Assembly (NCBI GenBank): GCA_963924565.1
Contig: OZ004609.1
Coordinates: 28,768,001 to 28,832,000 of the forward strand
DNA length: 64,000 bases
DNA from: Ascidiella aspersa
Lineage: Eukaryota
Direction: 5' to 3'
Positions within the stretch are counted from its first letter, which is position 1. Each line of letters begins with the position of its first letter. Positions 10,856 to 64,000 of the stretch are shown in pieces. The notes beneath the pieces were generated by a model. The model had not been told where the DNA came from, made no database searches, and saw only the letters and a program-made list of their open reading frames with translations. The position numbers and the translations under genes are program-made.

Positions 10856-10859
10856 AAAC

Positions 10860-17710: not shown

Positions 17711-17729
17711 GCATTAAAGTTATATTTGG

Positions 17730-37735: not shown

Positions 37736-37931
37736 GTAAGAAGATTTGTACTGTAGGCCTAGATGAGATGCCGTATCAGATTGTTTAATTTATGTTTTTA
37801 CGTGTGTATTTCGATAAGTGCGTTAATGACTTTTGCGGATGTATCGGATCGCAATTCGTCAGGAAGCGACGTGTGAACGTCATTCTAGGGAGCAGTAATA
37901 TGAAAAGCTATGTTAGAGAATGCTGAAACAA

Positions 37932-38118: not shown

Positions 38119-38996
38119 TTAATGACAGTTACCGGCGCCGGCAGGTAAAATAGACATTTCAGGTTAGCGGGATATCGAGCGTCGAAGCCCGGTCAAAAAT
38201 GCGCGCACGTCTGATGGTCATTTGAGATATTGTTTTCAAATATGGAGCTTAGCTGTACATTGTGTATTGAATCGCAATATAGGTCTTGCAAATAAAGCCG
38301 TAGTTGAGTCAGTCATTCATCGGTCGACTTGCCTTAGTTAGCCGCAACAATTGCAGTTATTTCCCCATAGACGAGCGGATTAGTAACGAACCAGGCCGCG
38401 GCGCTGTATCGTCTTGCCTTTGTCCAGTTCGCAAATCCCTTCCAAAATCAATAAGACATTTGAAAGGGAGAGTCATATTCCCAGCGATTCCGCGCATATG
38501 TTACCGCTCGGTCGAGTTTAACTGTGCCAGTGTGACGGTTAGAGCAGTTCGTGTAGTTTTTAGGTAACTTGGTGTTAAGAGGGCAAATGTACATATCGCT
38601 CTTCGAGTTCAATTCCCGTGTACTTGAAGGGCTAGAGATTTAAAGTGGCCGTGTAACCGCATTTGTTTTACTTTATAGCTTCAAGATCGCCACTTCGTCA
38701 TGGGATGCTTTTAGGATGTTTAGCGTAAACCACGGAAACAAAGGCCTCGGAAACATTTTGACAAAGTGTTCTTTATCTCTCTATATGTGCTGTAGATTGT
38801 AGGCGATTCAAACAAAAAGCTGAGACCGAGACAAACTGTGGAACCAGCAGCTTTAGTCTTCCTGCTGTTCTATGGAGCTATTATTACACACGTCCATTAG
38901 CATCTTGGAATTCTAAATCCCGCGTTTTTAACTCGCTCTCTTGTTGGAATTATCTGCTTGAAAGCACAGCACAGCAAACCGTTCACAACCACTGCA

Positions 38997-41900
38997 ATGA
39001 AGACTCGCCTGGCGCTTAGAATATTATTCGGTCTTGTGCAATGTCTTCACGTCGTCGGTAAGTGTGAAAACGCAAAATCTACAAGATTAAATGTTATGTT
39101 TATTGTGTTGCGATGTAGTATAACACTAATTGGAAGTTAGTGCTTTTTTAAAAGAAGGAAAACATTTTGAGGTGGGCCACAGACCAATTTAAAAAACCTT
39201 GATTTATTGACGAATTTAGTTTTATTCGTGTCACTATAATTAATTTTACAGAAATAATGTCTTTTTGGGAGGAATTGAGAAATAATGCAAATGAAATTTA
39301 AATTTATTGTTTAGCAGCAAGTATCTCACCAATACACAGTTGAATAAATATCCTGTTTTGAAAAAAATTGAAGTTCTGCTGTTTTTTTGTTCTAAACCTG
39401 TTTCATATTTTTTTCTTTATATAAAAGATATTGAGCCACAGAATTTATGTGCAACGAAAATGGGTTACAAAAAAGTTTGAGAACCACTGGGTTAGAGAAT
39501 GGTTTCGATTTAGAAAACAGGAGTAGTTTAAATGCTTTGGTTCAACGTTGATTCAGAACCGCAATAATCCGCTTTGGGCCATTATATGCGAGGTGAAGAC
39601 GCTGGTTGTCCGGCGGGTGCACCTTTAAACGTGATTTCGAGCGTGCAGCCAGGCAACAAACAAACACACGTGTCCAATTAATCGCCCCCAGACAGGCCCT
39701 AATCCCTTCGGCGAGCGTAAACAGATTATAACAAGGTAAGAAAATATTTCGGCCGGGGTGCAAATGGCCGGGACAGCGCGAAAGGCGGACGTTGTTTATA
39801 CGCGGGGACAAAAGCCGGACCCGGTTTCGCTACGCGTGGGGCAAGCCCGGTTTCGCCGCAGCGTTTTTGCCACTCACGCGAGAATGTGCGCGCCTTTAGA
39901 AAGCGCCTTCAACGTCGCGAACGGCGAACATTAGTTGAGCAAACATGGCGCCGAATGCGATTTGAAACTTTTGGCAACTGAATAATTTCTCGCGGGGGCG
40001 GTATTCTTCGGCCGGTTTGCAACTGCGAGTGTTGATTTTGCGAAACAAGCGAGAAAATTGGCTACTGGTTTTGCGCCGCGCAGCATTTGTCCAACCAACA
40101 TTTCAAACCACATTGACTGACTACACATACGAGGCTGGCGCGTGAAATCGCCATTTAAAGGCAATTGGTCGCTATCTCGCCTGGTCAACTTTATGGCGGT
40201 CACAAGAGCCAATTGACCTGTTGCCAGATCGCCGAGAAAGAGAGAGCGGTCCACTTGTTTTCGACTTTCGCCCGGGCGCGCGCTCGTTTAAACAAGCCTC
40301 GAAAGGCCGTAAAAACGGCGAATGCATTGCCATTGCAAGCGAGCGGCCGTTTACTTACACGCGATAAATTTTACGGCGAATTACCTTCTTGTTGTGTTTG
40401 TGGATTGATTTGCGATGGGCGGTGGTGGTGGTCGGCCGTGGGGGGTTCGACGCAAGGTTTCGACCACTTTCTCCACGAGTTTGAACCTGTCGACCCTCGT
40501 GTTCAATCAAACCTAATTAGGGAGCCGTTGCAAAGCTCTTTAACCTATAAAACCACTGCCGTGTTGCAGACCGAATTTAAACGTGCTTGCGCCATCAGAA
40601 ACTTAAACATTCCTGTCTCAATTATGAATATTCAGCAATTTAAAAAGTGTAGCTGTACGTGTGTGACGCGAAGCTCAATTTCCCGTGTAATATTGTACCC
40701 CGCGATTACGGCCGTAATTCGTAGTCGCTGCGAAATTTCCCGGCCCCGCGTTCGCGAAAAACAGTCGTTTCCTATTACATCATCAAGTGCGTTAAAACCG
40801 TCCTCGACGCGGATTCCGGCCAGGATTAAGGCGTCCAACTAGCTTCGTGTTCGTGCTGCCTTAAAGCAATAGCAGTCGACGCTTTTAATCGGTAAGACGC
40901 TTACTGTCCGAGCTAAATGGTCGCTTAACTCTCCTGTCGCCATGTTTGGCGTGTAATACCCGAACTGAGCCTGTAGTCCACCCAGCACTTATACGCCCTG
41001 TTAAATAGCGCCCTTGCAGTAGAACGAGGAGCAGCTATTATGTGCGATTTGCTTGCTGCTATTCGGAAACTGCACTTTCCGAGTCGTCCACGCCTTTTAA
41101 TTGTTCGTTTCGGGCAAAATTTAGCCCGCTGTGGCTTTACGGCACGCAGGTTTAATATTTCGGACACGTTTTTTTGACTTTTTTTGATTCGCAATACCTC
41201 TAAGACAGTAAACATCGTTGAAAAATCAAGTCCGTGTTAGACAAATTCTAAGCAAGTTTAGGTCGGTGGCCTCCTAAATCAATTGCAGGCTGCTGGATAA
41301 GTCAATTCATTTTGTTTTATTTACGCTACAGCACTGGACATAGCGATATTAGGTTTTGTTTTTCCAAATTACACGAGCTAAATAGTAAGACAAATTTATT
41401 GAACACCAGCCATCCAAGTCATTCCCGAATGATTGCTTTTTTAAAGTCAATACATAATGCCACAAAATTAAATTAGGATAAGTCCGTGAAAAAGAGTGTC
41501 TATAATGAAACAGGTCGTTACATAACACAGAGATGTAAGTGAATCGTCTTCCCTCGTTTGCACAAACAACTCGTGAGGATTTTATTTCGGTAATCTAATG
41601 AAGCGTTCCGACCGCCATATGCAGTGCGCCGGTAATGCGTATTAAGTCGGCGATTGGGTGACTCACCATCGTTTGACCGACGATGCGACGTTTATTGGGA
41701 ACAACTCTTTTTGGTTGATTAGACGCCGCTGGCCAAAACACCAACCTGTGCGCAAACCCATAGCGATCGAGTTTACCGGTAAATTTGCGATGCGCCCAAA
41801 ATTCGAAGGGTTGTTTTGCCAGCGCCGGCAATGCAGTATCGATTTTTGGCCTTCGCTCTTGGCAGCACGGTCAGACAGCGCTGACAGGGTCGCGTCAGCG

Positions 41901-44900
41901 CCGAGCGACCGACTCCTTCTGGCGTAATGAAGGCCGTGGAGAACGCTCCCGTCCGTTCGTCCGCCCGGCCGAGCAATTGCCGGATTAACACAGCACCTCT
42001 GCTTCGATTCGATCTCGACCTGAATAATTCATGGCCGCGTTCCCTCGTAGCTCGGCTACCCCCGCTTGCCAAGACTTTGTGTTACGAAACAGTCGCACAC
42101 CAGTTTATTTTTTTTGCTCAGCACGTCAGGGCGCCTTGCTATAGTTGGAAACGCCCTTCCTATACACTAATCCCCACCAAAAATCAGTAGCAATTGGTTT
42201 ATCTATACTTTGGTCGATTTGTTCAGTTGTATGGGATTACAATTGCAATAAAGTGGTGACTAGATAGATGGTGATAAAGTGTGACCGTTTACTTTTAACA
42301 TGGAACTCGACAACGTTTATTTCTAGCAGCACCATACTGGTCTAGTCAACTGACCAGCTCAGAATCGTTTACCTGTGTCGTGTACGAAAAAACAACTGAA
42401 TCTTAATTGCACCACAGTAAAAAACATCGAAAATAATTTACGGCGACAATTTGAGCTTTTCAAAACCTGAACTTATAATGCGATTAGGCACATCTAGTTG
42501 AAACAAGGTAACACATTGTCAACGCCCTTCGCAGGTTCACATCCGGAGCGGTTTAATCTGGCCTTTAACGGCCCGAAGCATATCGACAAACAAGCACACA
42601 AATACACTCATACACACACAGTTCCACATACGAATCGAACACTTGAAAGCGAAGGCATCCGATCCGGGCATCGGGTCTTTGCAAGGTGTGCGCAGCGCGA
42701 TTTACGATCGAGTTTGGCGAAACCTTCATTAAGTGAGAGAAGGGCGGCCTTTTCCCCGATAAGGGCCCCGAGCATTCCTCGGCGCACAAATATAGCCTCA
42801 GAAACGCGCCGGCGTCCCCGGGCGTTTGTGTACCCTCCATGACAGATTCTATTTGGATTGCTCCTCGGCGGGCGAGCCGATACTTAGAAGCTCTTGACGC
42901 ACCCCCGCCCTCCACCCACCAACTTTGATAAAATGTGCGCGATCGCCGTCGGCGCTGCTCCTTTTGCTTTTTGTGTTGCAACAACAGCAAGGAAATTTCC
43001 GTTTGTCGCAATAAACCCCTTCGAGTTTATTAAATTTGGTGTTTGGGAGAATTTATGTGGTGCCACAGACGTTTAATTATGTCACACGACTAGCGGCGTT
43101 AAATATTTTTTGTTGGTGTTTTGCAGCATTGGAAAAGGCCGAAAATGCTATCCCTTTTTGTTTTATTGAATGTAAAGCATAAATATAAACCTACACACCT
43201 TGTACCAGACAAACTTTACCCCAGATACCTTATATCATTCACGCGGAGGATTATCTCACGGGGGCAGCAGTCAACCCGGTTTGCCCGCTTGCCGCCTTGT
43301 CTCGTTCTCGCTCGTAATATTTTAAGGGCGTCAATCATTGGCGCCACAAAACAAAAGCGGCGCGACTTATAAAACGGCCTTAAACTTGAGCACCGGCGCA
43401 TCTCCAAAGCATATACTTTGTGGTCCTTGCGAGTCGCCGCTCGGTCGACAAAGCTTGTTTGCGCGATCGTTTGCGTTTGTCACTTGTGCGACCGGCCGCC
43501 ATGAGGTCGTCAATCCGGCCTCGTATATCCTTCCAGGTGAGATGTTTATCGTCTAATTGCTGGTCGATGTTTGTCTTTGGCAGATAAGCGCGCAATCTCG
43601 ACCGACGTCGATGTCCGTTGAGGCTATAGTTTGCTCGTGCGTGCCGAGATTTGACGGTCTGGTAAAATGGCGAATAACCGTCTCTTACCTTGCTTTGTTA
43701 TTATCAGTGAACCATTGTGATGCGGATAGGTCATCTTTTGCGGGTTGCCATTTTGCTGGAAACGTGTCCAGTCGGCCGTTGACGTAAATTCGCCGTGCTC
43801 TTGTTTCTATTTTTATGCCGCACTTTGGGGTAAAGTTCAGGGCAACCGCGAATCAGTCGTTTGTTTCAAGTGGTCGCTTGTTGCTATTTGTAGAGCGAAT
43901 GTGGAATGCTGCCGAAAGGGATTTGGGACTAAATCAAGTAATAAGGTCACGAAAATAATCCAACCCTGACTCCACATAACCCAAATGTCTCTTTGATTAG
44001 AAGGTATGGGCTTCCTATTTTCTGTATGAACAGGTTCTCGCCCTTAAACCGGTAACACAAAAGGCCCCTTTCCGCTTTGGCGCTGCTTCTTTAAACGGGC
44101 AAACAATTGCAGAAGTCAGGCGTTTGCGTTGTCGCAACAACAACAGCAGAAACCCTTGCAGTTCACCATCCAACAACTAAACTGCAGCGGTGCCTGTGTA
44201 GACCTTCCGTTGTTTGTTCGAAGACTTAGTCGAAGCGTGAATATAGGCGCGTTTGATATTGACCGGGCCGGCCGCTGTGATGTAACCCCGCCCACTTGGT
44301 TGAAAAAACAACAAGCGACCCGTTCTTAGTGACCCGATTTATGATCTTGCCCTTTATTTCGTTTGGCGTGCTGGGATGGGCGCGTTGTTTGCCAAAGCTC
44401 ACAAGAAATGTCGGGAAATGATTTTGGTGTCGCCTCGGAATGTTGTTCGATAAGGTCGAATGGTATTTGGGCTCTGATGGGTCCTTGTTTTGCTAGGTGT
44501 CCCAAATGAGCGCTGTTAGGTAAACTAAACAACACATGGCTGGGGCAGGCAACTTTAAATACAAGACCATATAGGGTTATTTTACACTTCAAGTTAATCG
44601 TTTTTGGTTTTTGAAACGTTTTTGGTTTGAAACAGTTATAGTTTTTCGGTTAAACTTAATGACATTATTTCAATCTTTGGACACAGCACAAATAGAACTT
44701 TTGCTACAGTATTAACAGTTTGGTTTTTGGCAAAAGTATCAATAAATATATGCATATTGATAATTTTCAAAAGTTTATCCAAAACAGCGCGTATATCAGA
44801 ACGACAATTTTTCTCCAATATTGGCTACAATGGAAAGGTCGGCACCTCGCGGTAACAATCCTTAACTTTTATCCGTTTCGTTCAAATTAAAACTTTCAAA

Positions 44901-47900
44901 ACCTCCCGCTTTGTGTGTCTAACAACAAGCCCGAACGCCGCGTACAATTTTCAGTCAATACGTTTGCGGCGCGTCCTAACTGCAGAATTATTGAACCAAT
45001 GCGAGCGCATAATTAGTGGGCGAAATCGATAGTCGGCGTCCGCTGCACGGCGGCCTCCGAGACCCCTCCGGGAGGTAGTTTCTCATTTTTCCTTTCTGGC
45101 GTTAACCTACTTCGACAGCAGGTACTGCTCTTGCACTCTCACTGCGTATAGAAAGAGGGTCGAGAAGCGACCACAGCGGTTTGACTTCATTTGAGTCCCA
45201 ACGATTCGTTTTTCGGGGCAGCGGCTTTGTTACGGTTCACGCGTTGGACGTAACGGCCTGGTGTGCTTCAAAACATCAGCGTGCGTTTCAGCCCAATCGA
45301 CCGCCCTAAGTCCCTCTGATTTGCTTTAAAAAATAAACAGTGTTTGCCACCAAACATCCAACTAAGGCGATGTGTGCTCGTGTGTTAACTTTGGAAGAGT
45401 GTCTCCTAACTGTTGGTCCTTGTAGAATGTTTCCTTACCAAGGCTTGTAGAATTAATTAAAATAGGTATGTGTGTTACACCATATAACGTAAACAGTTTT
45501 CTTCTCTTACTTTATAGGCCGGATTTGTGCGTTAACATAGGTAACCTATTATGTTGTTCAAAATTTTGTAACATAACTTCGTCTAATGTTTGCAAACAAT
45601 TTTGTTATTTGAACAATGAACATTTGTCTTGTAGCTTCAAACAACCTTTTTCGGTCAATTTTACCAATAAAAAAAGGGGTTTGCTATTCGCCAAGAAAAT
45701 ACCAGTCACTATACGGAAAGATTGACAGCTAACCGTTTGGTTATTACACACGTTTAAAATAAACCGTTTGCTCAACAGTCCGATGCGTTTAAAATTTATC
45801 AACGTCCCGCCGAATCACGTCACACAACCGCGGAACTTGATTAAATCTGCTCGTCCATGGCCCGTTTTATGAACGGACATTAAAAGTCGCCGGGGCGCGA
45901 CCGTCTCAGCAGATTTGGGGCGATTTCTGGTGGGAACTCGCGCTCCTCGCGGTTTTACCAAGTCGCCCGGAATTAGATTTGCCTTCACGCCGGTCGACCG
46001 TCAAACTTACGCCTCGGTTTTGATACCGCTCGGTTGTTTGTTGTTTCAAATCATTATTCGCGCGCCGCCTCTTACGGCTGACGACTTGAAACTGGTGGCA
46101 ACGAAGCGCTAAACCCGACGGCGACTTGGGAGGGCCGCTAATAAATTACCAGCTGACGAAACGAGGTTTGAAGTAGCCTTTTTTTCGTCCGAGGCTGCCT
46201 GAAATAGTTCGCCTCGTTATTATCGGCGACGATTGCCGGTCGTGGTTCGGCGATTTTCGCACGCACATTGCGGAAATGGCGTCACACACACACGAAGCGC
46301 GTTCTCTTCGGCTGAGAAACAAGCTCAAACGCTCGTCGTTTTTTATCAGCCCCCCATTTGAATGTCGCGCACATTGAATGTCGCGCTGTTTAGGATTCCG
46401 CCCCCGCTTTTCCGCCAAACCCGTCAGCGGGCGCTTGTTGCCAAAACCGAAAACGACAAAAAGCCGCCAATTCGGATGCTCGCTTCAAGCCAGGGGGTGA
46501 AGGTGGGCCTTGGGAACCTCGTTTCTGGGCCCTTTTAGAGATTGAGGCGGATTTTGCCGGTTTGCGCAATAGCGGGGACTGTACCGCTTTGGAAATTGCG
46601 GTGCTGCTTTCTTCCATTGAAATAAATTATTCGAATGAATTAACAATGTCGGTTTATAAGGCTAAAATATACATATCTTTATATCATCTTAAATAATTCC
46701 TGATTTTTACCGGTTTTTAAAAACTTTTTAAAGATTTTCTTTTTTGGAGATATTTCCTTAAGATTCAACGCTGTCACCGAAGTATTTTGGTCCCGAGTTT
46801 ATTAATAAACGATGGAGGACTGGAGGTAGAACAATGTTGAATTTTTTTTCTTTTTAGATTTTGCTTTTACAAAGTTTTAACTCAATGATCGCACAGCTTT
46901 TGCTTAGGATTTTTTAGGTGTCCTCGAAAACGTTTACGGAAGAGACTGGCGGCTTGAGACCCGGTGCCGTTTCATCGCATTAAAGACCCCGTAATCTCGC
47001 CGAAACCCATTAACCCACAAAAAAGGCTCCCGCTCCACTTGAATTAATTCGCCCAAAATCCGCGTTGCAATTTGCGGCAAAAACAAGACCGGTCCGGGCC
47101 TAATCCGACCTGTGAAATTCGCCCATCCATCACTCGTACAGTGGCAGCACCTCGGTTCCCGCTACTCGCCGTCGTATAGCTGTTTGTGTACGCGCCCTCG
47201 ATAGCCAATGGTCGTTGACAAGACAAGAGACCAGCCTCGTTGCGCGACCATTGGCCAGTCAATGTGATCGGTATTCGGTGGACATCACAAAACAGCTCGA
47301 CCTGTATTTTCTTTACACGATTTTTGGTGGGAAAAGAAGCCAATGGGCATTTCGCTTGGCTTCCCTGGCTTACTAAATGACAGGTGTAATAAGGCCACTT
47401 AAAGAATAATTCCAGCACTTGCTGACACTTTGATCAGCAATATTGACGTCAAAGTGTAACCGGTGATTTCTTCAAGCTTGCTGCAATAGGGGTTTCTTAA
47501 ATAAACAATTTACCTTTATTCGTTGAAAAGCGATTCAGGTTGCTTTATGAATTATTCTTGATTAGGCCTTATGCCGCAGAGCGCCCGAAAGCTATTTGTT
47601 TTCATCGCGTGGGGTAAAAATGCGCGAAAATTTCTATTATGATTCTGTTTGAAACTCAGCGCCTAATCAGTACAGACAGCAGCTAAATCCTCCGCTACCG
47701 GTACTAGTTGGCTTCATTTGTTTTAGCTTTAACGTCGAATCTGTGGGCTCCAGTCTTCAAACACCTACTGGCAGGTTATGGAAGGGGGAGGGGGGCGATG
47801 TGGGGCAGGTCCGTCGACGAAAGTGCGTCTGAAGCGCCCCACTGAAGGGCGCGCGATCGTCAATCGAAAACGCCACTCATAGCCACAATGGTCGACGGCG

Positions 47901-50752
47901 TGACGGACAAAGGTCCGCGACCCACGTGTACCGCTCGTCTCCGATTCGCAACCCTTTGTCCGCCGGGCGCACTTGACAATTAAACGCAGTTATCTGGGAT
48001 GCTCGATTGTGTCGGTTTAGCGCCTCTTCACCGAAGTCGCTGTGTAATTACTTGCGCCGGACTAAGGGGAGATGGGAATTTGCGGTTGTCTTGTCGCACC
48101 TTTCCAGCACCGGCTTTTTGACGAGCGGTGTAACCCGAGTGATCGCTGCGTCTCGGCTGCTTTGTGTTCCTTCTAATTCGGTCCGTTACTCCAGGCAGTT
48201 GCTGGGACGGATTCCAAACCAATTGCCGCCAGCGCCATTCATAAATGTACGATCGTCCAATACCCTCTTGACAAATGTTTCATTAACTCTTGATTATGGT
48301 TTGATAACATACTAACAGCAATTAAACAAACAGTTGCAGTCGCTTACATTATCTCTTTAAACGTATTTTTTTTGTGAAATTATGCTATAGTTAAATTCGC
48401 TTTGCGTATATTTATTATTTTTTAAGGCGACTTGCCGACCTTTTTTTCGAGTCCGAAGTCCAGCGGTATATGTGAAAATTAGTATCGTGGAAGTCGATCG
48501 GTGTTGGTGTCCGGCACTGAATCGTTACATTAAAAATAAATTTCGCAGCGCCTTCCAAAGTGCAAACGCATAGGGAAGGAAGGAAGCCATGTTTTCCGGT
48601 CACCTGTACATGGTAAACACGCAAAGATTTCGCCGGATCTTCTCACGCGCGCGCGCTTTGGTGGCTGAGAGATTACGCAACTTTTTCTTGGTCCAATTAA
48701 CTTTCCCGTCGTTTGAACGAGCGCGCTTGCCACGCGCTTCAAAACCGCGACTTCGGCGCCTCGTTACCGCAAAAGCGGGGCCGGGGCGACCGTGCCTTCT
48801 TCTGGGACTTTATCGTTACCTCGCGGGTGAAAAACGCGCTGAAACCGAAACTGGCTTGCGGTCGGTGGCGGATTTTTCCATTGATCCCGTTAATGAAGCT
48901 CCCTGTGAATAGACGAACCGTACAATAAGGCGATCCCGTCGGAATCGGACGCAACCTTTGTACGCGCTAATGAGATTTATCCGGTCCGACACACCTCTGC
49001 TGTATAAAATCGAATGAGCGCGGCGTTCGGTTTTTAACTGGTGGAATCTTTTTGCACTTTCCTTGGGGCGTAAATTTGTCCCGACTTTAACGTCGGTTTG
49101 TTATGTCCTTTTGCGACCTCTCGGTTTCGAAAGCTAATATAGGCATGTCAGACATTTTGCCTTACATGTATCATTTTTGCAAGGCCACGATTTGTATTAA
49201 CGGGGATTGAGCTTATTACTTATAGGCAAAGGTTTTGCGATTTCAGTTGACGAACAGTAAGAGCAATACCACAGGTTTGCCCTTTAGCCTTTATAATATG
49301 ACGTCACGCTTTTTTTAGGTAAGGATGTCACATTTTTAACTGAATGTATTAAACCTGCTTCGAAACGTGTCCATATACCACAAAATTCCGTTATAACTCT
49401 TACGAGTATCGTCTCAACCCTACCCACAATAAAACTCACTTTTTTGTGTTTCAGTATGCGCCCCAGCGGCACCGGAACTGCCGGCCCCCTTAGCAGCAGC
49501 CCCAGCATCACTGCCCACCCCTAAGGCGAGAAGCTCCACCTCGGGCAGCACCCCTACAGCCCCCCGTATCACCGAGCAACCCCGCGACATTCTGGCGACT
49601 GGAGGGGGAGATGTTGGGCGTCTTAACTGCCGGGCCAGTGGCTACCCACTACCTGCTATTACGTGGCTCAAAGACGGCAAACCGCTGAAAGAAAGCATTG
49701 GTGGGTGTACTTTTAATTAAACTACAATGTTTGTGGATGATTGTAGTTTGCGGTTCGATTTATAATTGTTCGAATCCTAAACTGATAAACCACCTGGAAA
49801 GAAAGCGGGGCCCCGCGCTGTAAAAGTCTAATCACTGATTATCCCCCCATGGCCTGATTTTTAGAGAATCTGGTGCTTTTGTTAAATACGCTATTTGAGT
49901 TGGAGACTAGTGTAGGATAGCGTTAGGCTGACTTTACAAATCGGAAGAAATTGTATGAGGTGTTGGTTAAGTAATTTCTAGAAAATTATTAAATTCAAGT
50001 GCATTAAGAAATTAAGTTACATTTATCGGTTGTAATGCATAATCGGGACGGAATTTTTTACCGAGAGATGTCTAGACGTAACGGGATTGTCCTAAACTGG
50101 CCATATTTCAAGATGATAACACGAGCTGACGGATTTCAGAGAGCTTGGCGTGATACCAACTCTTTTTCTACAATGGGCACCCCCTAAAAATGTGGCTCTT
50201 GGTGTAGGGTGTGCTGTCAAAAAAATACCACCACCTTAATATTGTTCCCAACGTTAAACCGTGTGAGAAAACTTACGCTTGAATGGATTTTGATCGCTCG
50301 TGGATTTACACGTTATTGGACTTGACCTAAAAGTTAATACGATTACAAAAGATTATACCATGATAGAAGTTAATACGATGGTAAGAAGGATTGCGTCAAT
50401 GAGGTAATCATTTAACAAACAAAGCCGTAGTGTTGGCTACGGATTATTTCTCACTGAAAAGTTGGTTTGGAAGTTAGTTCCATAGATTTATGTATTTTAA
50501 AAGGTCACCGCAGTTTTGTCACTAAAACACAGGGTTGAGTGCGTTAAAATATACTTTGTGCTTAACAATTTTTCCAACATTTGTTTTTTATGCCTGCAGT
50601 AAAAAACATCGTCAGTATGCCGGAAGGTGGCCTTATCTTCCTGGAGGTTCTGGGCCGAGGCTCCGACGGTGCCAACGTGGGCTCGTACCAATGCATTGCC
50701 ACCAACCCACTGGGCAAGGTCTACAGCAGGAACGCCTCCGTTCAGCTCGCCT
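38997..50752 (+). CDS. ROBO: Roundabout (Robo) family receptor, 5' part: signal peptide and first Ig domain; gene continues beyond the window
   Basis: Exons 38997-39057 (MKTRLALRILFGLVQCLHVV, G|GTAAGT), 49455-49700 (..PTAPRITEQPRDILATGGGDVGRLNCRASGYPLPAITWLKDGKPL..) and 50600-50752 (KNIVSMPEGGLIFLEVLGRGSDGANVGSYQCIATNPLGKVYSRNASVQLA, T|GTAAGT), all phase 1. Matches Robo Ig1 (PRIVEHP..LNC.A.G.P.P.I.W.K.G..LP.GSLFFL..G.Y.CVA.N.LG.A.S.NASL.VA). No Ig2 exon found before 64000. Confidence 0.85.
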
Positions 50753-53700: not shown

Positions 53701-56700
53701 AGTCATTTGTCGGCTGCGTTCGACCGCTCTGTCTGGTCAACATAAGCAACAGCGATTTTTTGCTTCCCTAAGTTATACTGGGTTTGCGCGCGTGGGTAAT
53801 GCGATTAAGGAGAACGTCATAAAAAAACAACGGTCCCGGCCTTCGAGCGAAAATCGCTACGTCTTGCTTTGGCTCGCTTGTCACACGCTGGAACCGAGCA
53901 TTGCGCCGTGAAATCGGATCTCGTCTTTCCTCCTGTCACAGCCTTGTCGCTGCCTGTTGTCGCCTCTTGCCTCCTTCCAGCGCTTTTACTCAGGCGCCTC
54001 GCATTCTGTGTCGGCTCCCCGGATTTTCTACAGCCTTGACATCCGATATTCGCGCTACCGCTTCTTAAAGATGTTTTAGCGTTTTGCGCTGCTAGGCGTG
54101 AAATATTATTGTTTGATAGAGTTTTAAAGAAAAAATAATTGCAAATAATTTTTAGCTGTTAATTGGATTTAAGCGAATTTCGCTGTGTTTCAAATGACAG
54201 GTGTGGCTGTGTTCGGTAAAAAATAGCGCTGTTTAGGTTCAAAGGTCTTCTTTCTTTGCTATACGCCGCACGTACACTTCAATACGCCTGGAATTTTCGC
54301 CGACCGAAATAAGATACCACCTTGGACAAGAATTCGAGTAAAAAAATCGCTCGATTGCAAGTGATTTCAGTTTAAGACAAACCGCGCCATCTACGCCTTG
54401 GCTCGTTTTATATCCCCAATCCTGTTGTTGTTTTCTCAAGTAAGCTTACTCACTGGTCGATCTGTTCAACGATCGGTATAGCGGCGCAAGATGCAGATCG
54501 CGCGTCCCTGGGCCGCGACTTTGGCCTTGTAACTCGATACGAAGGGCGCTCTAAACGAATTAGGATAATTCGGTTTGCAATTTTCGGCCCTTTCGCCTTC
54601 GTCATAATTGGGTTTCGCGCGCCGGCGACGACTTGCTGGGCGCCGCGACGATTACGGACGCTTTATTGTGCGCCGCTTTGGGTTAAAACTCGCTCCAATT
54701 TTCGAATGACAAACTCTTTATGCACTTAAACGTGGGCACGGCCTTTAGGTTTTCCAGGTAATCGCGACTATTTGCGTGCGCCCTCGCCATCAGATTCCTC
54801 TTATTGGTCTGTGTTGCGACGTGACGCAACACTTGATTGATTGACACCTTCATAAAAAAGTAACAGCGTCGGATGCTGTTTACGTACTTAATGGTGCCCG
54901 TAATGGGGCACCTATGTGATTGGATGACCCTTCTACGTAGTGAGCGTTTATAGAGTTAACCTGTCGACCTTTAGCATGCCTGCCATATACTCTAGCGTGA
55001 TTTGACGTACGAGTTAACTGTGAAATCTTAAATTGTCAACGGCATGCCTTGCAACTGCATGTGTAAGTCCAGTTGTCCTATCAGTTTGAAAAGGAAACGG
55101 CGAAATTTCGAACTGTTGTCAAGCATATTCGCGGGCCAGGCAACTTTTAAGTCGGAAATTGGAAAAGGGCGCCGCTGTTGATTTCTGCAATCGATTAGGC
55201 GTTTAAGCCAGTCGGCGACAAGCAACTAACTCAATTACGGCCTTGCGCGACACGACGAGTGCGTCAGGCGACTTGCGTCTGCGACACGCTGCACTATTGC
55301 CGATCGATGATTGTCCTTTCATATGGTCTTTGCAATTTAAAAGTCACTTTCTATCGACAATTGTCGCACTGTAACTACACAAAATCAAATAAATTGTTCC
55401 ACAGTTTCAACCATGCTTGCATGAATGCTTTAAACGTTTAAAGAATAATTTACGTTTTGCTCGAAAGTCATATTAAACCTATCCGCCTTTGTTTATCTTA
55501 CCCTGGTTCACATTTTATATCGAAGCTTTTTTCTATACCAGACATCACATTTTTTGATGTAACGTTGTGCCATTGGGTTCCCGAAGTTCGCATTTAGGCC
55601 TAAAGGTTGTGTCACGAACTCTGCAGAAGTAATTTATGGAAATAAAGCTTTAAAGCATTGTCGTGGCCGTCCCGGGGTCTCATGGGCGTCCGGGCCTCTT
55701 CGAAATCGAGTCAAGTTTAACGAGTGTAATTTGGGTTTCGGGTTACTCATTCGCCAGCGGGACCCAACGCTATTAGGCCTGGCCAGGTTCGGCTTTTAGC
55801 ATTCCCCGCGTCACCGAAAAGTCACGAAGAAAAACTATTTCCCCATCATTCGTAACGCGCCAGAGCAAACCTAAGCAAAGCAGCGCCGACACATTCGGGG
55901 ATCTCGTTTTCACTTGTTTATGGCGTAAAGGCGACGCGCAATTTCGCAATGCTAATGGCTCGGTGTTAGGTTCCCAAACATCGGGTCTTGACGACCTTGC
56001 CTATCTCCCTGTTCGGACCGCTCTGAAGTTTAGAAAATGCACAAATGTATTCGCCGGGCTGAGGCCTGCAGGTAATTTGTACGTTAAATATTAATAAAGC
56101 GTTTGAATGGTTTCGAATGTTTGTATAAGACTCTCGATATATGAGAATCGGTCATAAAAAATCGGTCATTAGTCAACCTTGTTTACCTGCATATTATTGT
56201 GGTAGTGTTTTGTATGTTTGTAAACTGCAACACAGGCGGGATTTTTGGCCCGTGAAGCAACTTGGGAACATGCGCATTGCAGTGACGTCAGTATTCGATA
56301 GCATAAGCGTAAACACGTTGCCGCAAATTCGGAACGTATTTTCTCTAGTCCAGCAGTATAAGGCGAGTTTTTTATTCGCAAGGGCTCGGTGCGTCCCACC
56401 GCAGACGCATTCCAACGCTCGAATCACACCAGGACGCGATGACCCGGTCTGGTCGGTTCGAGCCGCCACAATCCGCCAACTTGCAACCGCGAGTGATTGA
56501 CGTCCAGCTGCGTCCTCCTTCACTCTATAGTTTGTGCCCTGGCTTCCCGCGCTAAGTGAGTTTAAAGCTTTCGGCAAAGAAGAGGCTGGCGACTTCAGCT
56601 TGTCGCTGAGCGCGCGCGGATTGCGGCCTGGCAAATGACATCACGCGGCGATTAGTAGTTTTCCCAGCAGGGCGCCGAGCCAGGCGTGGAGGGCGAGCAC

Positions 56701-59700
56701 CGGACGGCGGGTCATTACGTTTAGGGTACACTTGGGAACCGGGCCAGCGTTCGACCGACCTATGCAGCTTCTTGTGACCGGCATCGGTTTAAATGCCGGC
56801 AGTCGCCGTCGCCCAGGATGCCCTGGATGTAACCCTATCTTCCTGTGTTGACTATGTGTTGTGTATATATATAATGGTGTTACGACCAGAACCTTAACCT
56901 GGCCTGTCGCGGAAAAGCATTTAGCCTGGAGTCGCTTGCTGCTAACGAAGCTGAAGTTAATTCTAAAACAGACAGGCTCATTAGCATTCATTGCCGATGG
57001 TTGGGCGCATTTTTCCGATCATTAGCAACCGAGGACGGGAAAACGCGAACAGACTCGTAAGGGACCATTAAGAGTTTCCCATGGCATAAATTATAGACGA
57101 CAGGGGTGCCGGCGTTGGCATTTATTTGGCCTACTGTTGTACTTCATTTAGAAACGCGCAAAACAGACCAAGTCGACCGCGACGACTTAAACTGTATTTA
57201 AGTCAGTCGTTCGATCGCCAGCGTCGACTAACCGCCTGTTTTCGCGGGCAACATCCAAATGCTAAGCCGCGTATTTTGCATTAAACATTCATCGCAGCCC
57301 GACACCGCAACCGCCAATTGCCCATATGAAACTTACCAGTAATCGAGCCAAGCGCGTTTTATTCTATGGTGCCTCGCCCTTGTCTTCCTTGTGTATGGCG
57401 ATTTTCGGGAGACGACCGCGTTTTAATTATTGAACAGCGACCTGCATTTTGCCGACTGTTCCTTGTTTCTTTGGCGGCATTTGCCCGAAAACAGCCGCGC
57501 GCCGTAAGGTCGACTGTTGTCAGTCGACGAAGGGAGCGGTGCGTTTATGGATTAGAAACGGCCCCGGAGCATCTTTTCAGGCGATTATAGGTCGATGAAA
57601 TATTAAAGAGACGATGCTTGTCTGTCGCGTCTTGGCTGATGGGCAGCCGTGCACTTCTTTTGCAGCGAGCGCGACCAACACCCTGTAATTCTGTAAGACT
57701 GTTTAAGTGTCCCATCCTGTACTGCCTTATCGTCGCGTTTTAGTCATCTTAAACCCTATTCTTAGAAAACATTTCGTGCTAAGTCGCTATAGCCGACTTT
57801 AGCCGAAACCATTTGCGTTTAAACCCAAACCTAAAACAACACTACAACTTGTGTTTGTGTGTGCAACCAACCAGCGCTTTGAAAGGTCCAGCACGTGTAA
57901 ATTAATACCTGCGCAACGAAGCGTACACAAAGATGGCCGTCAGCGAGTGTGGGAAATTCACGTGAACGTGATGGCTGTCATGGACTGCGCGGCGTGTACA
58001 AGTGCTTTCAAAACGCGGCCTTAACCGCGGATTTGTCAGTCAGAATTAGTCGCAATTATCTCGCCTTATCAAGGCCGCTGGTATTTTCGTCCAACTGTGG
58101 AATACTGATTCGTCACCGTTGACCAAGAAACAAAAACGCGGTTGGTTTTTCATCTGTCGAAATGCAGAGACTGTTTGCAAATTGGTGCACGTAATTCGTT
58201 GGACACGCAACATTCGGCTTTGTTTTAGCATAAAACAAGCTTTGTAACGGTCCTTATGCCAAGCAATGTTCCAAGAATAACGATTCGCCTAATTGAGTTG
58301 TTAGCGCAACTGCGATGTCTATCAACGTGGCTTCTTGGAGTAGAAGTATAGCGTCTTAACCCGAATTCTTAATCCGCCGCTCAGATGCCCAAGCGCAGGA
58401 AATGTACTGTTCGATTTGCATTCACGTTGATTGCAAGTGGCCGAAAGGCGGACAGCTGTCCCCGGCCTTTAATCCCCTTCTAAGATGAGGAACTGCATGG
58501 TGCCCGGTCAATAAAGCGAGCATCCAAAAGTGAAATGTTAATTGCGATTTAATCTTTTTTGATTGAGACCTGTTTTACGGTTAATATTAATAATAATGAT
58601 TAATATTTTAAAATTTCTAATTTGCCCCTTTTTTAAATTTGATTGGTAATTCATGTTTTACCATCGCCTTAATTGTGCGAGGCTTTTGAAAAGTTATTTA
58701 TTATCTTGCCTGAAATAAAAAAAACACAGTTTGTTCGAGCCGCAGATCAAATCAGATTTAATTAAAGTTTATTGGATGTTCCTATGTTGCTGACCACTAA
58801 ACGCGTGTGGGCAATTATCGTTATAGCACCAACTGGTCCGAGCATTCTTTCTGCGGGTTTGGGGTTTCATGGCGTCAGTTATGACCTGGTCGAACACCTG
58901 GCGCTCTCACCGCGATACACACTTATCCAAACTAGTTTGGTGAAATAAGTCACGACCTTCTGCTTGCTCCCGAGTTGCGGTTTATCTCGTTGATTCCTTT
59001 CCTTCGGCCAGAAACTCTCACGATTGCTGGCAAAGGCGCGACCAGCACTCGACGTTTCGCCGCTTTCATCAGTCGATGGAACCTCTCCAGATTTCCCGCC
59101 CGTTTTACGTCCAGAATACGTGATTAGGCCTCGCAATACGCGATTAGCCCGCGCCCATCCACAACCGCAGCCGCGAAACCGCCAGGCTTAATTGCGACTC
59201 GCGCCTAACCTAACCAGCACCGGCATCTGTGTTCCCCGCTGGTTATATCGGTGAAGAATGTCGGGCTCAAATATACAAGGAAAAAGCTCTGCCCTTCTCG
59301 GATGTCGCTTCCCTTTCCATTGTCACGGTCACGTAGCGTCGCTTTGTGCGAAGCATGTTCGTCTATATGCGGTTACCCGTCTCTTTTCCGGTTTGTTTGC
59401 CGTCGACCGGTTGTCATTCCATCGTCGACGCTAACAGGATGGTTTGGGCTTCGGGACAGGTGTGTGCAAACATGATTCGATTTTGAAATTTGGGGTTTAG
59501 AGTTTAAAGGAGATGGCCCAAAATTTGAAATTTAGTTGACTTTGTGCCTATAAAATTCTGCCTTAGAATCTTAAAACGCGGAATCCCTCTGGAAATAGCG
59601 AGATAACTACTTTGGTTCTCTGTATCACCAGCCTTGTTTACCGAGACGTGCGCATATGAGCTTGTGCGATAACGCCGACAGGAAATTCGCAAACCGCAAA

Positions 59701-62700
59701 GCGACTCCTAAGCTGACAAAACTCCTGCGTCTGAAACCGAACCGATGCACTCCCGTAAACGAAAGCGTCGCCCTGGCGAAAACATCAGCGACCAACTATT
59801 TTGGAGGAAGAGGGTCGTTTATCACGATCAGCGCTTCCAAGACATCGGGTTCGAAATAAGGGGAGAACATTCAATCAACACAACTCAATTTCGGTCGCGC
59901 CATCCCATCCCTCCCCCCTTACAGTCCAATGCGCGGCGTTTTATCATGTCTACAGACGTGGGCCATACCACCATTAAACAGTCGCTTAATAGTGCCGTTG
60001 CTGCTGTTGCGCCAATTGCGCGAGCAATATTTTGCTACGGTCGCGGCGCTACAAAGCGTTTGAAGCAGAATGACTGGTTAAAACAAACACCCGACGTAGT
60101 AGACCTGCTCGTTCGGACGATGAAATATGGATCCCGGCCTGACGGCTCGGTTGGCTCGCCCGTAATCCGAATGTACATAGCCTCATGTCACATCAGCAGT
60201 TGACCGTTTCATTGTGCCTCTCAGAACCGCTGGTCCTTTTCAAGGCGCCGTGTTTGCCGAAAGGATAACACGGTGCCGTTTTCGCGTTTATATGACTCCG
60301 CGCCCCCGGTGGTGCCTATGGCGACCGTCGCCTTGTTTGTGGGGGTGTAAATTCGACAAACAGCGCTTCTGTGAAGATCGTGAGCGCGGCACCGTCGGAC
60401 TTTGGCAAATATTCACAGCGAAGTTGTACGGTCAGTTGCGACACTTGCATATCGACGGCCACTTCGGAATTACAGGTTAAAGTCCGTGCCTGGGCATATA
60501 CGCTTAGATTTCGCCACACCGACCAGGAAGATTAACTACATAAAGGTAGCTAATAGCGCGGCCGTCAGTTCGCGTTTCATCTCAAAGGCAATAACACACC
60601 CGCGCTGGACTACGGACACCTGTAACAATTTCCACGGCGCAATAACAATCGAGGACCACCCTTCCCCAGTAGTCCACCGCGACGACATAATAACGCCTTT
60701 CGCGCGTCGCGAAGCTGCCAGGGCCCGTTTTCTCGCCCCCGTCTTTCCGCACCAGTTCAGCGTCCCAGGAAGCGGCCGCTTTCCAGCGGGCGAGCTCAAC
60801 TCACGCCGAAATATCCCGGAAAACACACTCGGGCGCGCACAGGTGCGCTAACCGTGGGCTCATATCTCTCTTTTTCCCATCGCGCTCATTTTGACGAGGG
60901 CAGGTCACGCTCGCGCTTATATTATCCTGGCTACTTAACGTTATAGTTACCGGGCTTCGGGCTTGCGACAGCTGGTGCGCAGCAATTGTCGGATCCAGCC
61001 CTCCGCCCGTTTAGCCCTGCGCGTCGATCGCGTGAGCCGTTGTGACGTCAGTGACGCGTATTGTTGTTGCGCGATGTTGGCCGTCTTGCAGTGACGACGC
61101 CTTTGATCTTTTACCCTGGGTGCGCGTATTGACTTTTGATGCCGGGCTAAGGCGAGTTTCGTGGCCGCCGACCGCTAAACGCCACGTTCCAGTAAGACCA
61201 GGGCTTTATTGTTACCTTTGGTCGACTTAATCAACCTAGGGTGCCGTCCACTATATTTCATTTCGCCCTGGAATGCTGGCTATAGATTCGACGTTTGTCC
61301 ACACGTGGACACCGGTCGGACATTCTGTGGCTTTTCGCTCTCCCATAACCAGCAGCTCTTTGTCATTCGCCCGCGTTGCGAGTAAGTCAATTAAAGTCGG
61401 GCGCGAGTTTTGTCCGGTGCGAAATTTCCCGTCTGGAAACTTTAAATTAACCCGTTAACGTGCTTCGGGCGTGCAACTCTGTCTGGATTCGACTTTCAAC
61501 AATACGCTTCCAATTTCTACCAATGTTTCTGTTCGAATCGTTCCCCGTTTAGACTTCAAGCAAATACGGGAGGCAATTTAAATCGCGTCGCCCCGTTTTC
61601 TGGTGATTTACGACCGACGGCCAATCGAGCGGCGGCCGCTTTCATCGTCGGCATCGCGCTAATTTTTCGTCGCGACATGGAAAGCCATCCGGGGACACGA
61701 AAAATCTGCAAGTCGGCCAAAGCGGTTCGACCCCTTCTCGCAGGCTAATTGGCGTATTGCGATGTTTGCTTTCGCTGTGCCCTTGTTATTTCAGCTGCAT
61801 CCCTGTCGCTCGTGAAGTCAATTTTAGCCTCAATGGCACGGCGGGGAGCAGGTTGGGCAAAGGACGGGCGGTCGACGCACAATCACCCCCTTGTTTGCCG
61901 GGCAAGCGAAATTTATGTCCTTGACAATTGCGCGACTTGCGTTTATGGCGCCTTGACGGTTGTCAGTAACAAGTATATGACTACGAGTCTGGTTGCCACG
62001 GTACTTTGTTTTCTACCTTTCCAAGGACCCCCAACAGAGTTTTTTTTTTCGCTACCAAAGACACGCGACGATTTGCCTAAAGTTGTATCCTTCAGCAAGT
62101 AAACGAAATTTGCTCACACGATTATCTTATAATGGAAAAGACAGCGTCTATTATCTCGTTCAATGAGCTAGCAAAACGGTTCGCTCAAGTAGGCCACTGT
62201 GATCCGGGTTTGGTTGCCGTGGCCAATTCAGATCATAGCGACTGACCTTAGAGCGGCCGAAAAAAAATTGTGGGAAAGTGCCCGCTCGCCTTTTCGCTGA
62301 CCCCGCGGCCCGCGTAATAGCCAAGCATTATGTCCCCGCGTTGGTCAGGTGTCGCCTTACCGGCCCGCCACTCCCCTGAAAGTTCACCGGCATCGGTTTA
62401 AGCATCTCCCGGGCCGTCGTCTTTGATGCGGCCTAAATCTCCAGTCGTTAAATTCAATTTTCCTGAATTTCCTCCCAGCCCGGCTCCCCCACTCGATCTG
62501 CTTTTGTTTGTCGCGTTTCGGGCGAGCCAAAAATACCATGAGCCCGCAAATCTCCTGCGAAAAAAAACTGGAACAAAACTCCCGCCCGTCTCGCTTCGCT
62601 GCGCGCATCGTCGGGTCATTGACGACATTGAAACACCCGTTTCCTGTACGCCATACACAAGTCGGTTAAATGTGGATCACCGCTTTTATTCGACCCAATC

Positions 62701-64000
62701 TAAAACTGAAATATGTCGGTATCGTGTATGTATACAGTCTTGGGAAGTCGCACCTGTGCTCAATGCTATTTTTGTGAATGCCTGTTGACACTAAATACGG
62801 TATATTCAAAGCAAGAAAAAAATGAATCACATAGCCATGAAAGCCATGAAGTCGGGATGAGTAGGGGTATAAACCTTAAAAGTAGATTGTATCTTTAAAA
62901 TTAGAGTGCATAAAAGATGAAACGATTTAGCATCGATTTTCCGCTTTAATATTGCACTTAAAAGCATTTAACATGCTGCGTTTCGAACCTGGCGAATTTT
63001 GAGGTCTCATAATTCGTGCCGTTTACCGACAATACGCTCGTTAATCATACAGTCATCAATTCGCGTATGAATGCGCTGTCCATCTGTAAATCATAGAGGA
63101 GGGGCCAAAAGGGTGCCGCGTCTCCATTGTAGCCCATAATCGTGCTGCGAGCTTTAATCCCAACCCACCGAGCTATCGACAAACGGTCATTCATCCTCTG
63201 CGCACAAAGTATTATTAAGATATACACTGGCTACGATGGCCCTGCTGTCAGCAGTCGCACTTAAGCCTTGAAAGCGAACTTATAGCGCAACTGTACGCCC
63301 GGTGCTGGTGGTCACGGACGATTTGCTTTAATGTGTAATGTCTGCCGATCGAAAACCTAAAGCTTTTTGACTTGGTCGTTCGGGGTGCGGCCACTCGGCT
63401 TTGAACTGACCCGATGGCTTAAGCCGCTCGTTCGTCTGCCTGGCATAGTTTGACGGTGAACCTTTGGTTTTCACGCAATTGAAACCTGTTGCGAGGCTAC
63501 GATCGTGTTATGTCGTCGTTGCATCGCGTCAAGGCGTTTACGAAGGTTTATGTTTTTTTCGTGTTTCCTGCTGTCAAGAAACGAAACGTAAATACTTACG
63601 CGACCCCCTAATTTTGGTGTATACCACAAAACCAGAGTCAATTAGAATCACATTACAATTTGCAAACTGCTGTTAAGGAACGGATAGGAAATTTATTTTA
63701 AAACTTAAATTCCATGTTTCCTGTTGTGCTACGTTTTTGGTCGAAATGCATTAAGGGCCTTCATTTATAATATTGCCTAAATAATTCCATTCACAAAAGG
63801 TGGCTTTAACCGCCATGCAAGCACAGAATATGTATAGTTGCAATAGATTTGCCAATTTGGTTGATTTGGGGATTTTTGTTGAAATACCCATAAACCAGTT
63901 TTCATTTGGAAACCAAGGTTAACCACAGGAACGAAACCCCCAGGTCAACTGCAAATCGAAAAAGAAAAATCAATGGAAACAAAATTGCATAAAACTCGAC
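39550..64000. promoter_or_regulatory. CpG-rich, nearly transposon-free intronic domain of Robo; probable array of cis-regulatory modules
   Basis: Abundant CG/CGCG and no recognisable MITE termini after ~39490. GC-rich blocks contain many TAATT/TAATCC, ACAAT, GGAA, CAGGTG and TGACGTCA motifs. Regulatory function is inferred, not shown. Confidence 0.45.

Follow-up and report, generated by a model that had tools for sequence, protein, structure and literature searches.

The Robo-type locus

The window analysed was a 64,000-bp stretch of Ascidiella aspersa DNA (contig OZ004609.1, assembly GCA_963924565.1). Its predicted exons fit a gene for a Robo-type receptor, as the initial annotation had proposed: the Ig exons fell in order against a Robo-like protein, the Robo1 Ig1 domain was matched at 27.2 bits (DSCAM ranked first by summed score), and FN3-like, membrane and proline-rich frames were recognised by eye, giving the putative Robo layout (signal peptide, five Ig domains, three FN3 domains, one membrane span and a proline-rich tail). 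Intron 3 extends past the window, and the next exon lies near extended position 82.6 kb. No Rfam match was found in 30,000-64,000, and a tRNA search gave no gene.

The gene lies in a GC-rich domain spanning approximately 32 kb to 104 kb (extended coordinates), and in the gene's introns GC/CpG-rich blocks of about 600-660 bp alternate with spacers of about 290 bp (Table 1). The interval 39,550-64,000 had been described as Robo introns; the array does occupy introns 1 and 3, but the interval also includes two coding exons, which were themselves called as blocks. Intron 1 was the most regular part.

Table 1. Features of the Robo-type locus (window coordinates)
Feature	Position	Strand	Details
Upstream and promoter part of the CpG-rich, repeat-poor domain	32000..39000	.	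Blocks sparser
Predicted first coding exon, signal-peptide-like	38997..39057	+	ATG and GTAAGT donor in the sequence
Intron 1 array	39550..49449	.	11 blocks of 425-1,025 bp, GC 0.49-0.54; 11 spacers of 75-475 bp, centred at 40.6, 41.4, 42.3, 43.1, 43.9, 44.7, 45.6, 46.8, 47.5, 48.3 and 49.3 kb; fitted period 855 bp
Repeat fragment in the 47.5 kb spacer	47411..47542	+	84% like one other place in the genome
Predicted exon 2, first half of Ig domain 1	49455..49700	+	
Predicted exon 3, second half of Ig domain 1	50600..50752	+	
5' part of intron 3	50825..64000	.	Blocks alternate with spacers as in intron 1 but less regularly; fitted period 771 bp
Fused long block	56225..57724	.	1,500 bp, about 2 cycles; contains the shallow 56.9 kb dip
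Fused long block	59625..61999	.	2,375 bp, about 3 cycles; contains the shallow 61.5 kb dip
Short repeat fragment in the 63.8 kb spacer	63589..63669	.	78-85% like at least 10 other places

Rhythm of GC content

The GC rhythm in these introns was confirmed. The autocorrelation of GC (50-bp bins, 39,550-64,000) had a trough at 450 bp (-0.22) and peaks at 850 bp (0.23) and, weakly, at 1,650 bp (0.08). Spectral power at 700-1,100 bp was 14.5 times white noise, compared with 2.5-3.1 times in the neighbouring bands. The peak-to-trough difference was matched by none of 3000 red-noise (AR(1) + white) simulations and, for each of three block sizes, by none of 2000 block shuffles; the period of 0.8-0.9 kb read from the sequence, and an autocorrelation peak at 700-1000 bp that stands out against block-shuffled controls, were thus both borne out. 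As the stretch had been chosen by eye, the p-values hold for the chosen region and carry no genome-wide correction. Intron 1 alone gave the same control outcome; intron 3 alone was weaker (134/3000 simulations and 66-94/2000 shuffles reached its peak-to-trough difference), and window positions 1-24,450 had no rhythm (1749/3000 simulations did as well).

The rhythm was short-range: order was lost after approximately two cycles, the fitted coherence was about 1.2 kb, and 11 of the 23 block-to-block distances fell at 800-900 bp. Compensation in length between a block and its spacers was considered and rejected (rho -0.40, p 0.07; -0.23 without the two fused blocks), and order beyond independent lengths was marginal (60/2000).

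Composition and placement of blocks and spacers

Segmentation was carried out with a two-state model, which called 25 valleys; a geometric dinucleotide model cut the blocks too finely and was dropped. The 25 AT-rich valleys listed from inspection coincided with called valleys in 23 cases, but those at 56.9 and 61.5 kb were only shallow dips (GC 0.43 and 0.42). The blocks were not copies of each other and the units shared no sequence, so the period is compositional, as claimed at the outset, and does not qualify as a satellite or tandem repeat.

The unusual part of the array is the blocks. The valleys resembled the genome background: GC was 0.348 against 0.362, the CpG observed/expected ratio was 1.07 against 1.02, and poly(A/T) tracts numbered 9.3 against 9.6 per kb.

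When the real blocks were placed at random in spacer DNA, the observed peak-to-trough difference was reached in 0/2000 trials with no minimum gap, and in 3/2000, 128/2000 and 728/2000 trials with minimum gaps of 75, 150 and 200 bp, respectively. For spacer lengths, a peaked fit beat the exponential in all five segments (gain 1.2-3.8 log units), and the gain of 1.9 for this locus was reached by 1/42 exponential simulations. Peaked lengths were not preferred at 65.8-82.4 kb of the same intron; the stretch at 88-103 kb of the gene repeated the pattern.

Repeat cover was 0.2% of the interval, compared with 13-33% at 11 fixed-position loci searched with the same database, and recognisable repeat fragments lay in 2/25 valleys and in no block.

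Strand bias at block edges

Reading outward from the block edges, an excess of T and G was present in 231/299 blocks, and just outside 607 edges T-runs outnumbered A-runs (7.05 vs 3.78 per kb). The skew faded within about 200 bp of the edge and lay chiefly at the mononucleotide level. In the spectrum, G+T reached 5.9 times white, weaker than G+C at 18.8 times, and G+A at most 2.4 times; G+T was coherent with G+C at -114 degrees, approximately a quarter cycle out of phase. Random centres, used as a control, gave 205 positive and 183 negative skews. Two sources were rejected: a segmentation artefact, since the skew vanished with strands scrambled (291 edges), and a fold-back origin, the blocks' own left-right score being 19.5 against 19.4 for unrelated pairs (93 and 371 pairs). 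The sense strand of Robo itself (T-A +0.062, G-C -0.015; 3-mer correlation 0.16, p 0.39) did not match the outward G excess, which counts against the explanation preferred below. Divergent transcription of the enhancer type from each block, or proteins bound there in an oriented manner, would most likely have left this polarity at the edges.

Other loci of the genome

The suggestion that other developmental loci be examined was followed, and the rhythm recurred at Islet, in windows not selected for rhythm (wavelet magnitude 5.9 at 950 bp). The maximum at the Robo-type locus was 6.1 (850 bp) and shuffled sequence gave 1.8; the other homeobox loci reached 3.7, fixed-position loci 3.1 and the Robo flanks 2.8. 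Blocks per 10 kb numbered 9.8 at the Robo-type locus, 6.4 at Islet, 1.7 at homeobox loci, and 0.6 at fixed-position loci and flanks. Pooled sets excluded two fixed-position loci that were almost wholly self-repeats and a homeobox locus that contains tandem repeats and one very long exon; Islet was handled separately, and some pools excluded one locus overlapping a 140-kb stretch on C5; one 10-kb stretch was also excluded.

Eleven fixed-position loci pooled showed only a slight rise at 860-1,100 bp (5.8-6.1, vs 3.7-5.0 alongside), and the shuffle test was passed by 1/13 non-satellite fixed-position loci. The 140-kb stretch held few blocks and no 850-bp period, and block lengths pooled over all 20 first homeobox loci were not peaked. 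The 6-mer preferences of the blocks agreed better with Islet and other homeobox blocks (rank correlation 0.26 and 0.33) than with spacers and background (0.11 and 0.11). Motif enrichments were modest (z up to 5).

Polymorphism

Within-species differences were obtained from one haplotype comparison, with reads over 42,650-49,400. These partial data gave 1.1-1.9% in spacers vs 0.7% in blocks. Among the 40 of 182 difference rows listed, there were 12 events in 1,096 spacer bases vs 14 in 2,021 block bases (p 0.17); p fell to 0.002 only if nine unplaced differences of one valley were added. One block carried a 26-bp deletion. As evidence for the preferred explanation the contrast is weak. Runs X3 and X4 were rejected as a source of a relative's DNA (short pieces, mostly near-identical, at low depth); being near-identical, the pieces were read as the same species. 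Two metagenome Ig loci at 43-45% identity were too distant and were unused for conservation.

Explanations of the rhythm

The 850-bp rhythm is probably produced by cis-regulatory modules that are densely packed, spacer length having a likely lower limit of 150-200 bp. The blocks would be candidate modules, and tight packing together with a floor on spacer length would generate the rhythm. Selection may hold the blocks GC-rich within an unmethylated domain, while the unconstrained spacers would drift to the AT-rich mutational background and be trimmed by deletions until adjoining modules would interfere, which would set the floor. The composition argues for this reading: the spacers match the background and the blocks differ from it. 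So do the clustering of blocks around homeobox genes, the wavelet magnitudes, the placement trials with a minimum gap, the peaked spacer lengths, the low repeat cover and the 6-mer preferences common to blocks of different loci; the unpeaked block lengths of the pooled homeobox loci, the modest motif enrichments and block lengths above that of the median Phallusia ATAC peak count against it. An architecture of this kind oscillates in phase with sequence conservation (PMC8559709), and in the available text of two ascidian studies ATAC peaks exceed other DNA in GC content (10.1101/371005) and are denser around regulatory genes (PMC6952182). We infer only that regularly spaced regulatory modules would fit the evidence. 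A stricter form, speculative and considerably less probable, is an ascidian spacing rule: polarised, divergently read enhancers would need clear DNA of roughly one nucleosome's length on either side, and those of saturated loci such as Robo and Islet would jam into an 850-bp lattice. Were it true, enhancer centres would be marked in the sequence alone by the outward T/G skew. Ascidian eggs accept reporter constructs easily; the minimal-spacer idea is therefore directly testable.

The blocks could instead be a mutational by-product of germ-line sites at which chromatin is open, transcription is divergent, recombination occurs or replication begins, shaped by biased mutation or GC-biased conversion and free of enhancer selection. 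The outward T and G excess centred on the edges is a typical mutational trace, its mononucleotide character suits such an origin, and bidirectional substitution asymmetry with biased conversion is described for human CpG islands in the accessible part of PMC2817419. This account is unlikely: it offers no reason for a minimum spacer, it is less apt for blocks concentrated at developmental loci in a nearly repeat-free domain, and the skew range of about 200 bp is far below the replication skews given in that part of PMC2817419.

Sequence-encoded barriers, in which AT-rich valleys trap 3-4 nucleosomes per GC block, had been put forward in the initial annotation. The minimum spacer is close to one nucleosome. 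Nucleosome-free regions of yeast carry a polarity that the T-run excess outside the block edges would share if the valley were the free region. The barrier reading is nevertheless unsupported because a nucleosome-scale signal was absent, and we consider it quite improbable. The valleys were no lower than background in GC and no richer in poly(dA:dT), power at 150-250 bp was white (0.8-1.0 times white at 130-280 bp), and there was neither an edge-aligned GC ripple nor a 10-bp AA/TT/TA peak in the blocks. Block and cycle lengths held no 145-213 bp step (simulations did as well in 2402 and 1664 of 3000 cases), in a test of low power with 21-22 lengths. Beside long spacers, neither a narrow GC minimum nor a polarity reversal was found, and open chromatin in ascidians is the GC-rich fraction according to the available part of 10.1101/371005.

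That the valleys derive from old transposon insertions, which survived solely where they fell between functional stretches and have since eroded, is less probable still. The two fragments lie in valleys and none in blocks, short elements are similar in size to valleys, and in a beetle pair repeats lie between conserved blocks (PMC8559709). Against this, 23/25 valleys were unmatched in genome-wide searches, and 53/7,125 valley bases were matched in 1.75 Mb of comparison DNA. Such searches overlook old or very common repeats, so the reading is only lowered, and it can coexist with the regulatory-module explanation. Chance alignment of ordinary GC patchiness, selected by eye, would account for a region chosen after looking, for the unpeaked lengths at 65.8-82.4 kb and for the single fixed-position locus in 13 that passed the shuffle test; with 0/3000 and 0/2000 controls, and with recurrence at Islet and at 88-103 kb, it is largely refuted and barely credible.

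Comparison with known systems

From its sequence, the locus closely matches the kilobase G+C oscillation of non-coding DNA published for large regulatory loci of insects and pufferfish (PMC8559709; Moqtaderi, Brown and Bender, 2021). Both have a loose period of about 1 kb (fly block ~750 and spacer ~250 bp vs ~620-660 and 290 bp here), are strongest in large regulatory loci and damped in repeat-dense DNA, and lack a nucleosome-length peak; the 850-bp wavelength lies inside the 0.7-4 kb range of the class, and the same cause, spacing of cis-regulatory elements, is proposed in that work. They differ in that the host here is an ascidian (tunicates are not named in the accessible text of PMC8559709), that the rhythm is sharp only at the densest loci whereas the published class runs along whole chromosomes, and that a weaker G+T peak exists here, unlike the published spectra, which have no distinctive one. 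The architecture, initially thought unusually regular, is therefore not unusual in kind, being published and recurring at Islet. Taken alone, the locus is a strong instance of an architecture already described rather than a novel chromatin code; unusually regular and belonging to an invertebrate chordate, it extends the pattern beyond insects and pufferfish. PMC8559709 leaves open why conserved blocks retain AT-rich spacers of fairly even length, and its single deletion test was negative and unpersuasive by its authors' account; the present locus supplies about 22 natural block-spacer pairs that reporter tests could use. The edge skew goes beyond that account; should other animals share it, it would help to show how blocks act and would allow regulatory elements to be found from one genome.

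Other systems are less similar. The GC-rich, FAIRE-open regions of Tribolium castaneum (10.1101/199729) also recur at a ruler-like interval, but at about 3 kb, genome-wide and with measured open chromatin. Vertebrate nucleosome-inhibiting energy barriers (PMC4966569; PMC8228248) likewise bound GC-richer DNA with AT-rich stretches at sub-kilobase scale; their GC is far below that of the genome (human barriers average 26.5% vs 37.9%; PMC4966569), and their poly(dA:dT) edges, 153-bp steps and GC ripples were not found here. Divergently transcribed CpG islands, in the available parts of PMC4617957 and PMC2817419, share the opposite-sign strand asymmetry on two sides, but are vertebrate, mostly promoters and in a methylated genome, whereas the present blocks are intronic and recur each 0.85 kb. 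The accessible parts of PMC3580780 and PMC13655173 contain nothing on spacing or skew. Ascidian open-chromatin clusters (available text of 10.1101/371005 and PMC6952182) are GC-rich, non-coding and commoner near transcription-factor and signalling genes; that text states no spacing rule, and the peaks are shorter than these blocks, which exceed the median Phallusia ATAC peak of 123-219 bp given there (10.1101/371005).

Gene setting and neighbourhood

The window (contig C3, 28,768,001-28,832,000) belongs to an assembly of 308.6 Mb in 75 contigs. The assignment of the interval to Robo introns by the initial annotation was supported: surrounding exons matched a Robo-like protein collinearly, and further FN3-like, membrane-spanning and proline-rich frames (read by eye) lay 3' of them. 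Splice sites were placed by consensus and frame. The high CpG content suggests that the Robo domain is unmethylated, which would agree with Ciona, where methylation is mosaic (PMC3827831).

Features in and around the interval (window numbering, continued past 64,000)
Position	Feature	Reading
1-20,000	76-100% of length matched in other DNA of the comparison set; internal repeats spaced ~6.3-6.5 kb	probably a local tandem duplication
22,994-27,912	~4.9-kb element flanked by long inverted arms whose complementarity is 91-100% across several hundred bases	resembles a DNA transposon
30,848-31,878	two open frames, + strand; Pfam matches weak, sub-threshold	probably exons of an upstream neighbour gene
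~32-104 kb	CpG-rich domain	
37,936-38,110	short element with inverted repeats, upstream of where Robo starts; further copies (93%) lie at 17.7 kb and 171.7 kb	
39,550-64,000	the bulk of intron 1; intron 2 with the two Ig1 exons; first 13 kb of the 32-kb intron 3	interval under study
49.6-96.6 kb	exons matching Ig domains and first FN3, in order, + strand	Robo-like gene
88-104 kb	3' half of Robo with exons; 650-1,100 bp power up to 28x white, autocorrelation peak lags 700-800 bp	
105-120 kb	CpG o/e falls to 0.53-0.68 directly beyond the Robo domain	probable border with a methylated gene body
110.3 kb	482-codon frame adjoining the CpG o/e drop	resembles a DEP-domain RGS protein

GC rhythm of the Robo introns

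The GC autocorrelation of the interval showed a trough (-0.22) at 450 bp and a peak (0.23) at 850 bp, bearing out the period of ~0.8-0.9 kb first noticed by eye. The peak-to-trough value was matched by 0/3000 red-noise simulations and 0/2000 block shuffles, and the peak alone was equalled in one of the 3000 simulations; because the interval was picked by eye, these p-values are not corrected genome-wide. The rhythm was strong in intron 1 and weaker in intron 3 (134/3000 simulations reached the observed value). In the window's leftmost 24 kb the same test was negative, and peaked lengths were not preferred further along intron 3 (65.8-82.4 kb).

Twenty-five valleys were called with a two-state GC model, which recovered 23 of the 25 positions listed by eye and missed two. 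The best length model (blocks: mean 663 bp, GC 0.517; spacers: 287 bp, GC 0.355) beat memoryless lengths by 10.4 log units. Neighbour distances lay at 800-900 bp in 11/23 cases and the pair excess recurred at 1.5-1.7 and 2.4-2.6 kb, with phase decaying after ~2 cycles. Valleys (GC 0.348, CpG o/e 1.07, 9.3 A/T runs of at least 5 per kb) resembled the fixed-position comparison loci (330 kb; 0.362, 1.02 and 9.6, respectively), whereas blocks differed (0.518, 1.34 and 2.7); therefore the valleys are ordinary DNA and the blocks the exception.

Origin of the period

The array was initially described as neither a satellite nor a set of mutual repeats, and in a search within the 264 kb surrounding the locus no direct or inverted repeat was matched at 38.2-78.6 kb. 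Genome-wide searches over the interval found repeat fragments in two of the 25 valleys (47.4 and 63.6 kb); the other 23 gave no match in these searches, which are insensitive to old and very common repeats. Matches to 1.75 Mb of comparison DNA covered 53/7,125 valley bases and 0/17,325 block bases; repeat cover at 11 fixed-position loci was 13-33%. The proposal that the valleys act as nucleosome barriers was not supported. Human barriers have GC far under genome level, poly(dA:dT) edges and 153-bp steps with GC ripples (PMC4966569, PMC8228248); in contrast, the Robo valleys carried no AT or poly(dA:dT) excess, block and cycle lengths showed no step (21-22 values, low power), power at 130-280 bp was white, the GC profile inward from 41 block edges was flat, and blocks lacked a 10-bp AA/TT/TA peak. 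In Phallusia and Ciona, the open chromatin fraction is the GC-rich one (10.1101/371005).

When the order of real blocks and spacers was shuffled, the larger part of the signal persisted: the mean value was 0.35 vs 0.45 observed, and 60/2000 shuffles reached the latter. Random placement of real blocks in spacer DNA reached it in 0/2000 trials with no minimum gap, 128/2000 with a gap of 150 bp and 728/2000 with 200 bp, so even block size and a floor on spacer length suffice and a long-range lattice is unnecessary. The floor is soft, because 5/25 called valleys were shorter than 150 bp; peaked spacer lengths fitted modestly better in 5/5 segments. On balance, the blocks probably represent a saturated array of cis-regulatory modules.

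The Robo rhythm is a real, unusually regular case of a published architecture. Insect genomes show a G+C oscillation of 0.7-4 kb, in phase with conservation and strongest at large regulatory loci, with fly blocks of ~750 bp and spacers of ~250 bp; a minimum distance separating cis-regulatory elements was the proposed cause, and a four-nucleosome unit was weighed with no evidence obtained (Moqtaderi, Brown and Bender, 2021; PMC8559709). A beetle ruler (Tribolium castaneum) is described in 10.1101/199729. Robo is likely a member of the PMC8559709 oscillation class. The main text of PMC8559709 names no tunicate, and in the literature covered, largely outside subscription journals, we found no tunicate case of the oscillation and no account of skewed edges in blocks of this kind. 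The kilobase oscillation is common to both accounts; the block-edge strand polarity seen here is missing from the original description.

Within-species variation

Read run X2 differed from the assembly at ~1% of places; runs X3 and X4, mostly short near-identical pieces, were taken as the same species. Among the 40 listed of 182 X2 rows (43,026-46,359, minus 217 bp with unlisted places), 12 events fell in 1,096 spacer bases vs 14 in 2,021 bases of blocks (p 0.17); with nine unplaced differences of the 44.7-kb valley included, the rates were 1.9% vs 0.7% (p 0.002), a difference driven by that one valley. The spacer excess tilts toward expectation and proves little. A 26-bp deletion polymorphism (X2, X6) lies within a GC block at 46,306.

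Block-edge strand polarity

The G+T spectrum had a weaker peak (5.9x white at 760-860 bp), coherent with G+C at -114 degrees (Robo 39.5-64 kb; 14/5000 random-phase controls), -116 (Robo 64-104 kb; 4/5000) and -90 (Islet; 0/5000). Along the + strand, a block's left half was A/C-richer and its right half T/G-richer in 21/24 interval blocks and, outside Robo, where blocks are partly unmasked exons or promoters, in 59/70 at Islet, 134/180 at other homeobox loci and 20/31 in the set of fixed positions plus flanks (p 0.23). Overall, this polarity was seen in 231/299 non-tied blocks and 76/101 isolated blocks, vs 205/388 random centres. Skew reached its maximum at block edges (607 edges; T-A up to 0.067, G-C up to 0.058), faded within ~200 bp and was absent once strands were scrambled. 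Fold-back similarity was ruled out as its origin. The Robo sense-strand T excess agrees with the outward T excess; the outward G excess has no counterpart. Human CpG islands show divergent transcription with edge skew (PMC4617957) and bidirectional substitution asymmetry in their surroundings (PMC2817419).

Recurrence at other loci

The comparison set consisted of the best 40 distinct homeobox loci by score and 13 fixed positions. The rhythm is not unique to Robo: 7/40 homeobox loci (lags 600-1,350 bp) had an observed value reached by at most 1/500 shuffles, as did 2/13 fixed positions, of which one is a tandem array. Islet, the sole homeobox locus named here (C1:7,951,101-8,061,100, another contig of the assembly), had an 800-bp lag (0/500 shuffles), with lags of 800-900 bp across ~60 of 110 kb (0-30/500 in five windows); its homeodomain exon shares 95% identity with Phallusia mammillata Islet, 90-91% with Ciona and 85% with Clavelina, which places the host among ascidians close to Phallusia. 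Compared with Robo, Islet blocks are narrower and GC-richer (~400 bp, 0.55) and spacers longer (~540 bp), at similar cycle length. Block density per 10 kb was highest at Robo (9.8), followed by Islet (6.4), the remaining homeobox loci (1.7) and the fixed positions with flanks (0.6); lags were longer at block-sparse loci. Pooled block lengths of the first 20 homeobox loci (exons unmasked) had no peak.

At a GC-saturated homeobox locus (C1:32,502,301-32,522,300; GC 0.46, CpG o/e 1.27), blocks are largely fused and the lag is 600 bp (0/500 shuffles). Two fixed-position loci (L092-L094 and L098-L100) are repeats over almost their entire length: one is a tandem array whose GC lag is 800 bp, the other a region of 56% GC made up of direct and inverted copies several kilobases long. 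Two homeobox exons on contig C5 (4.02 and 3.80 Mb), 216 kb apart on opposite strands, encode an identical translated homeodomain and reflect either recent inverted duplication or a duplicate in the assembly.
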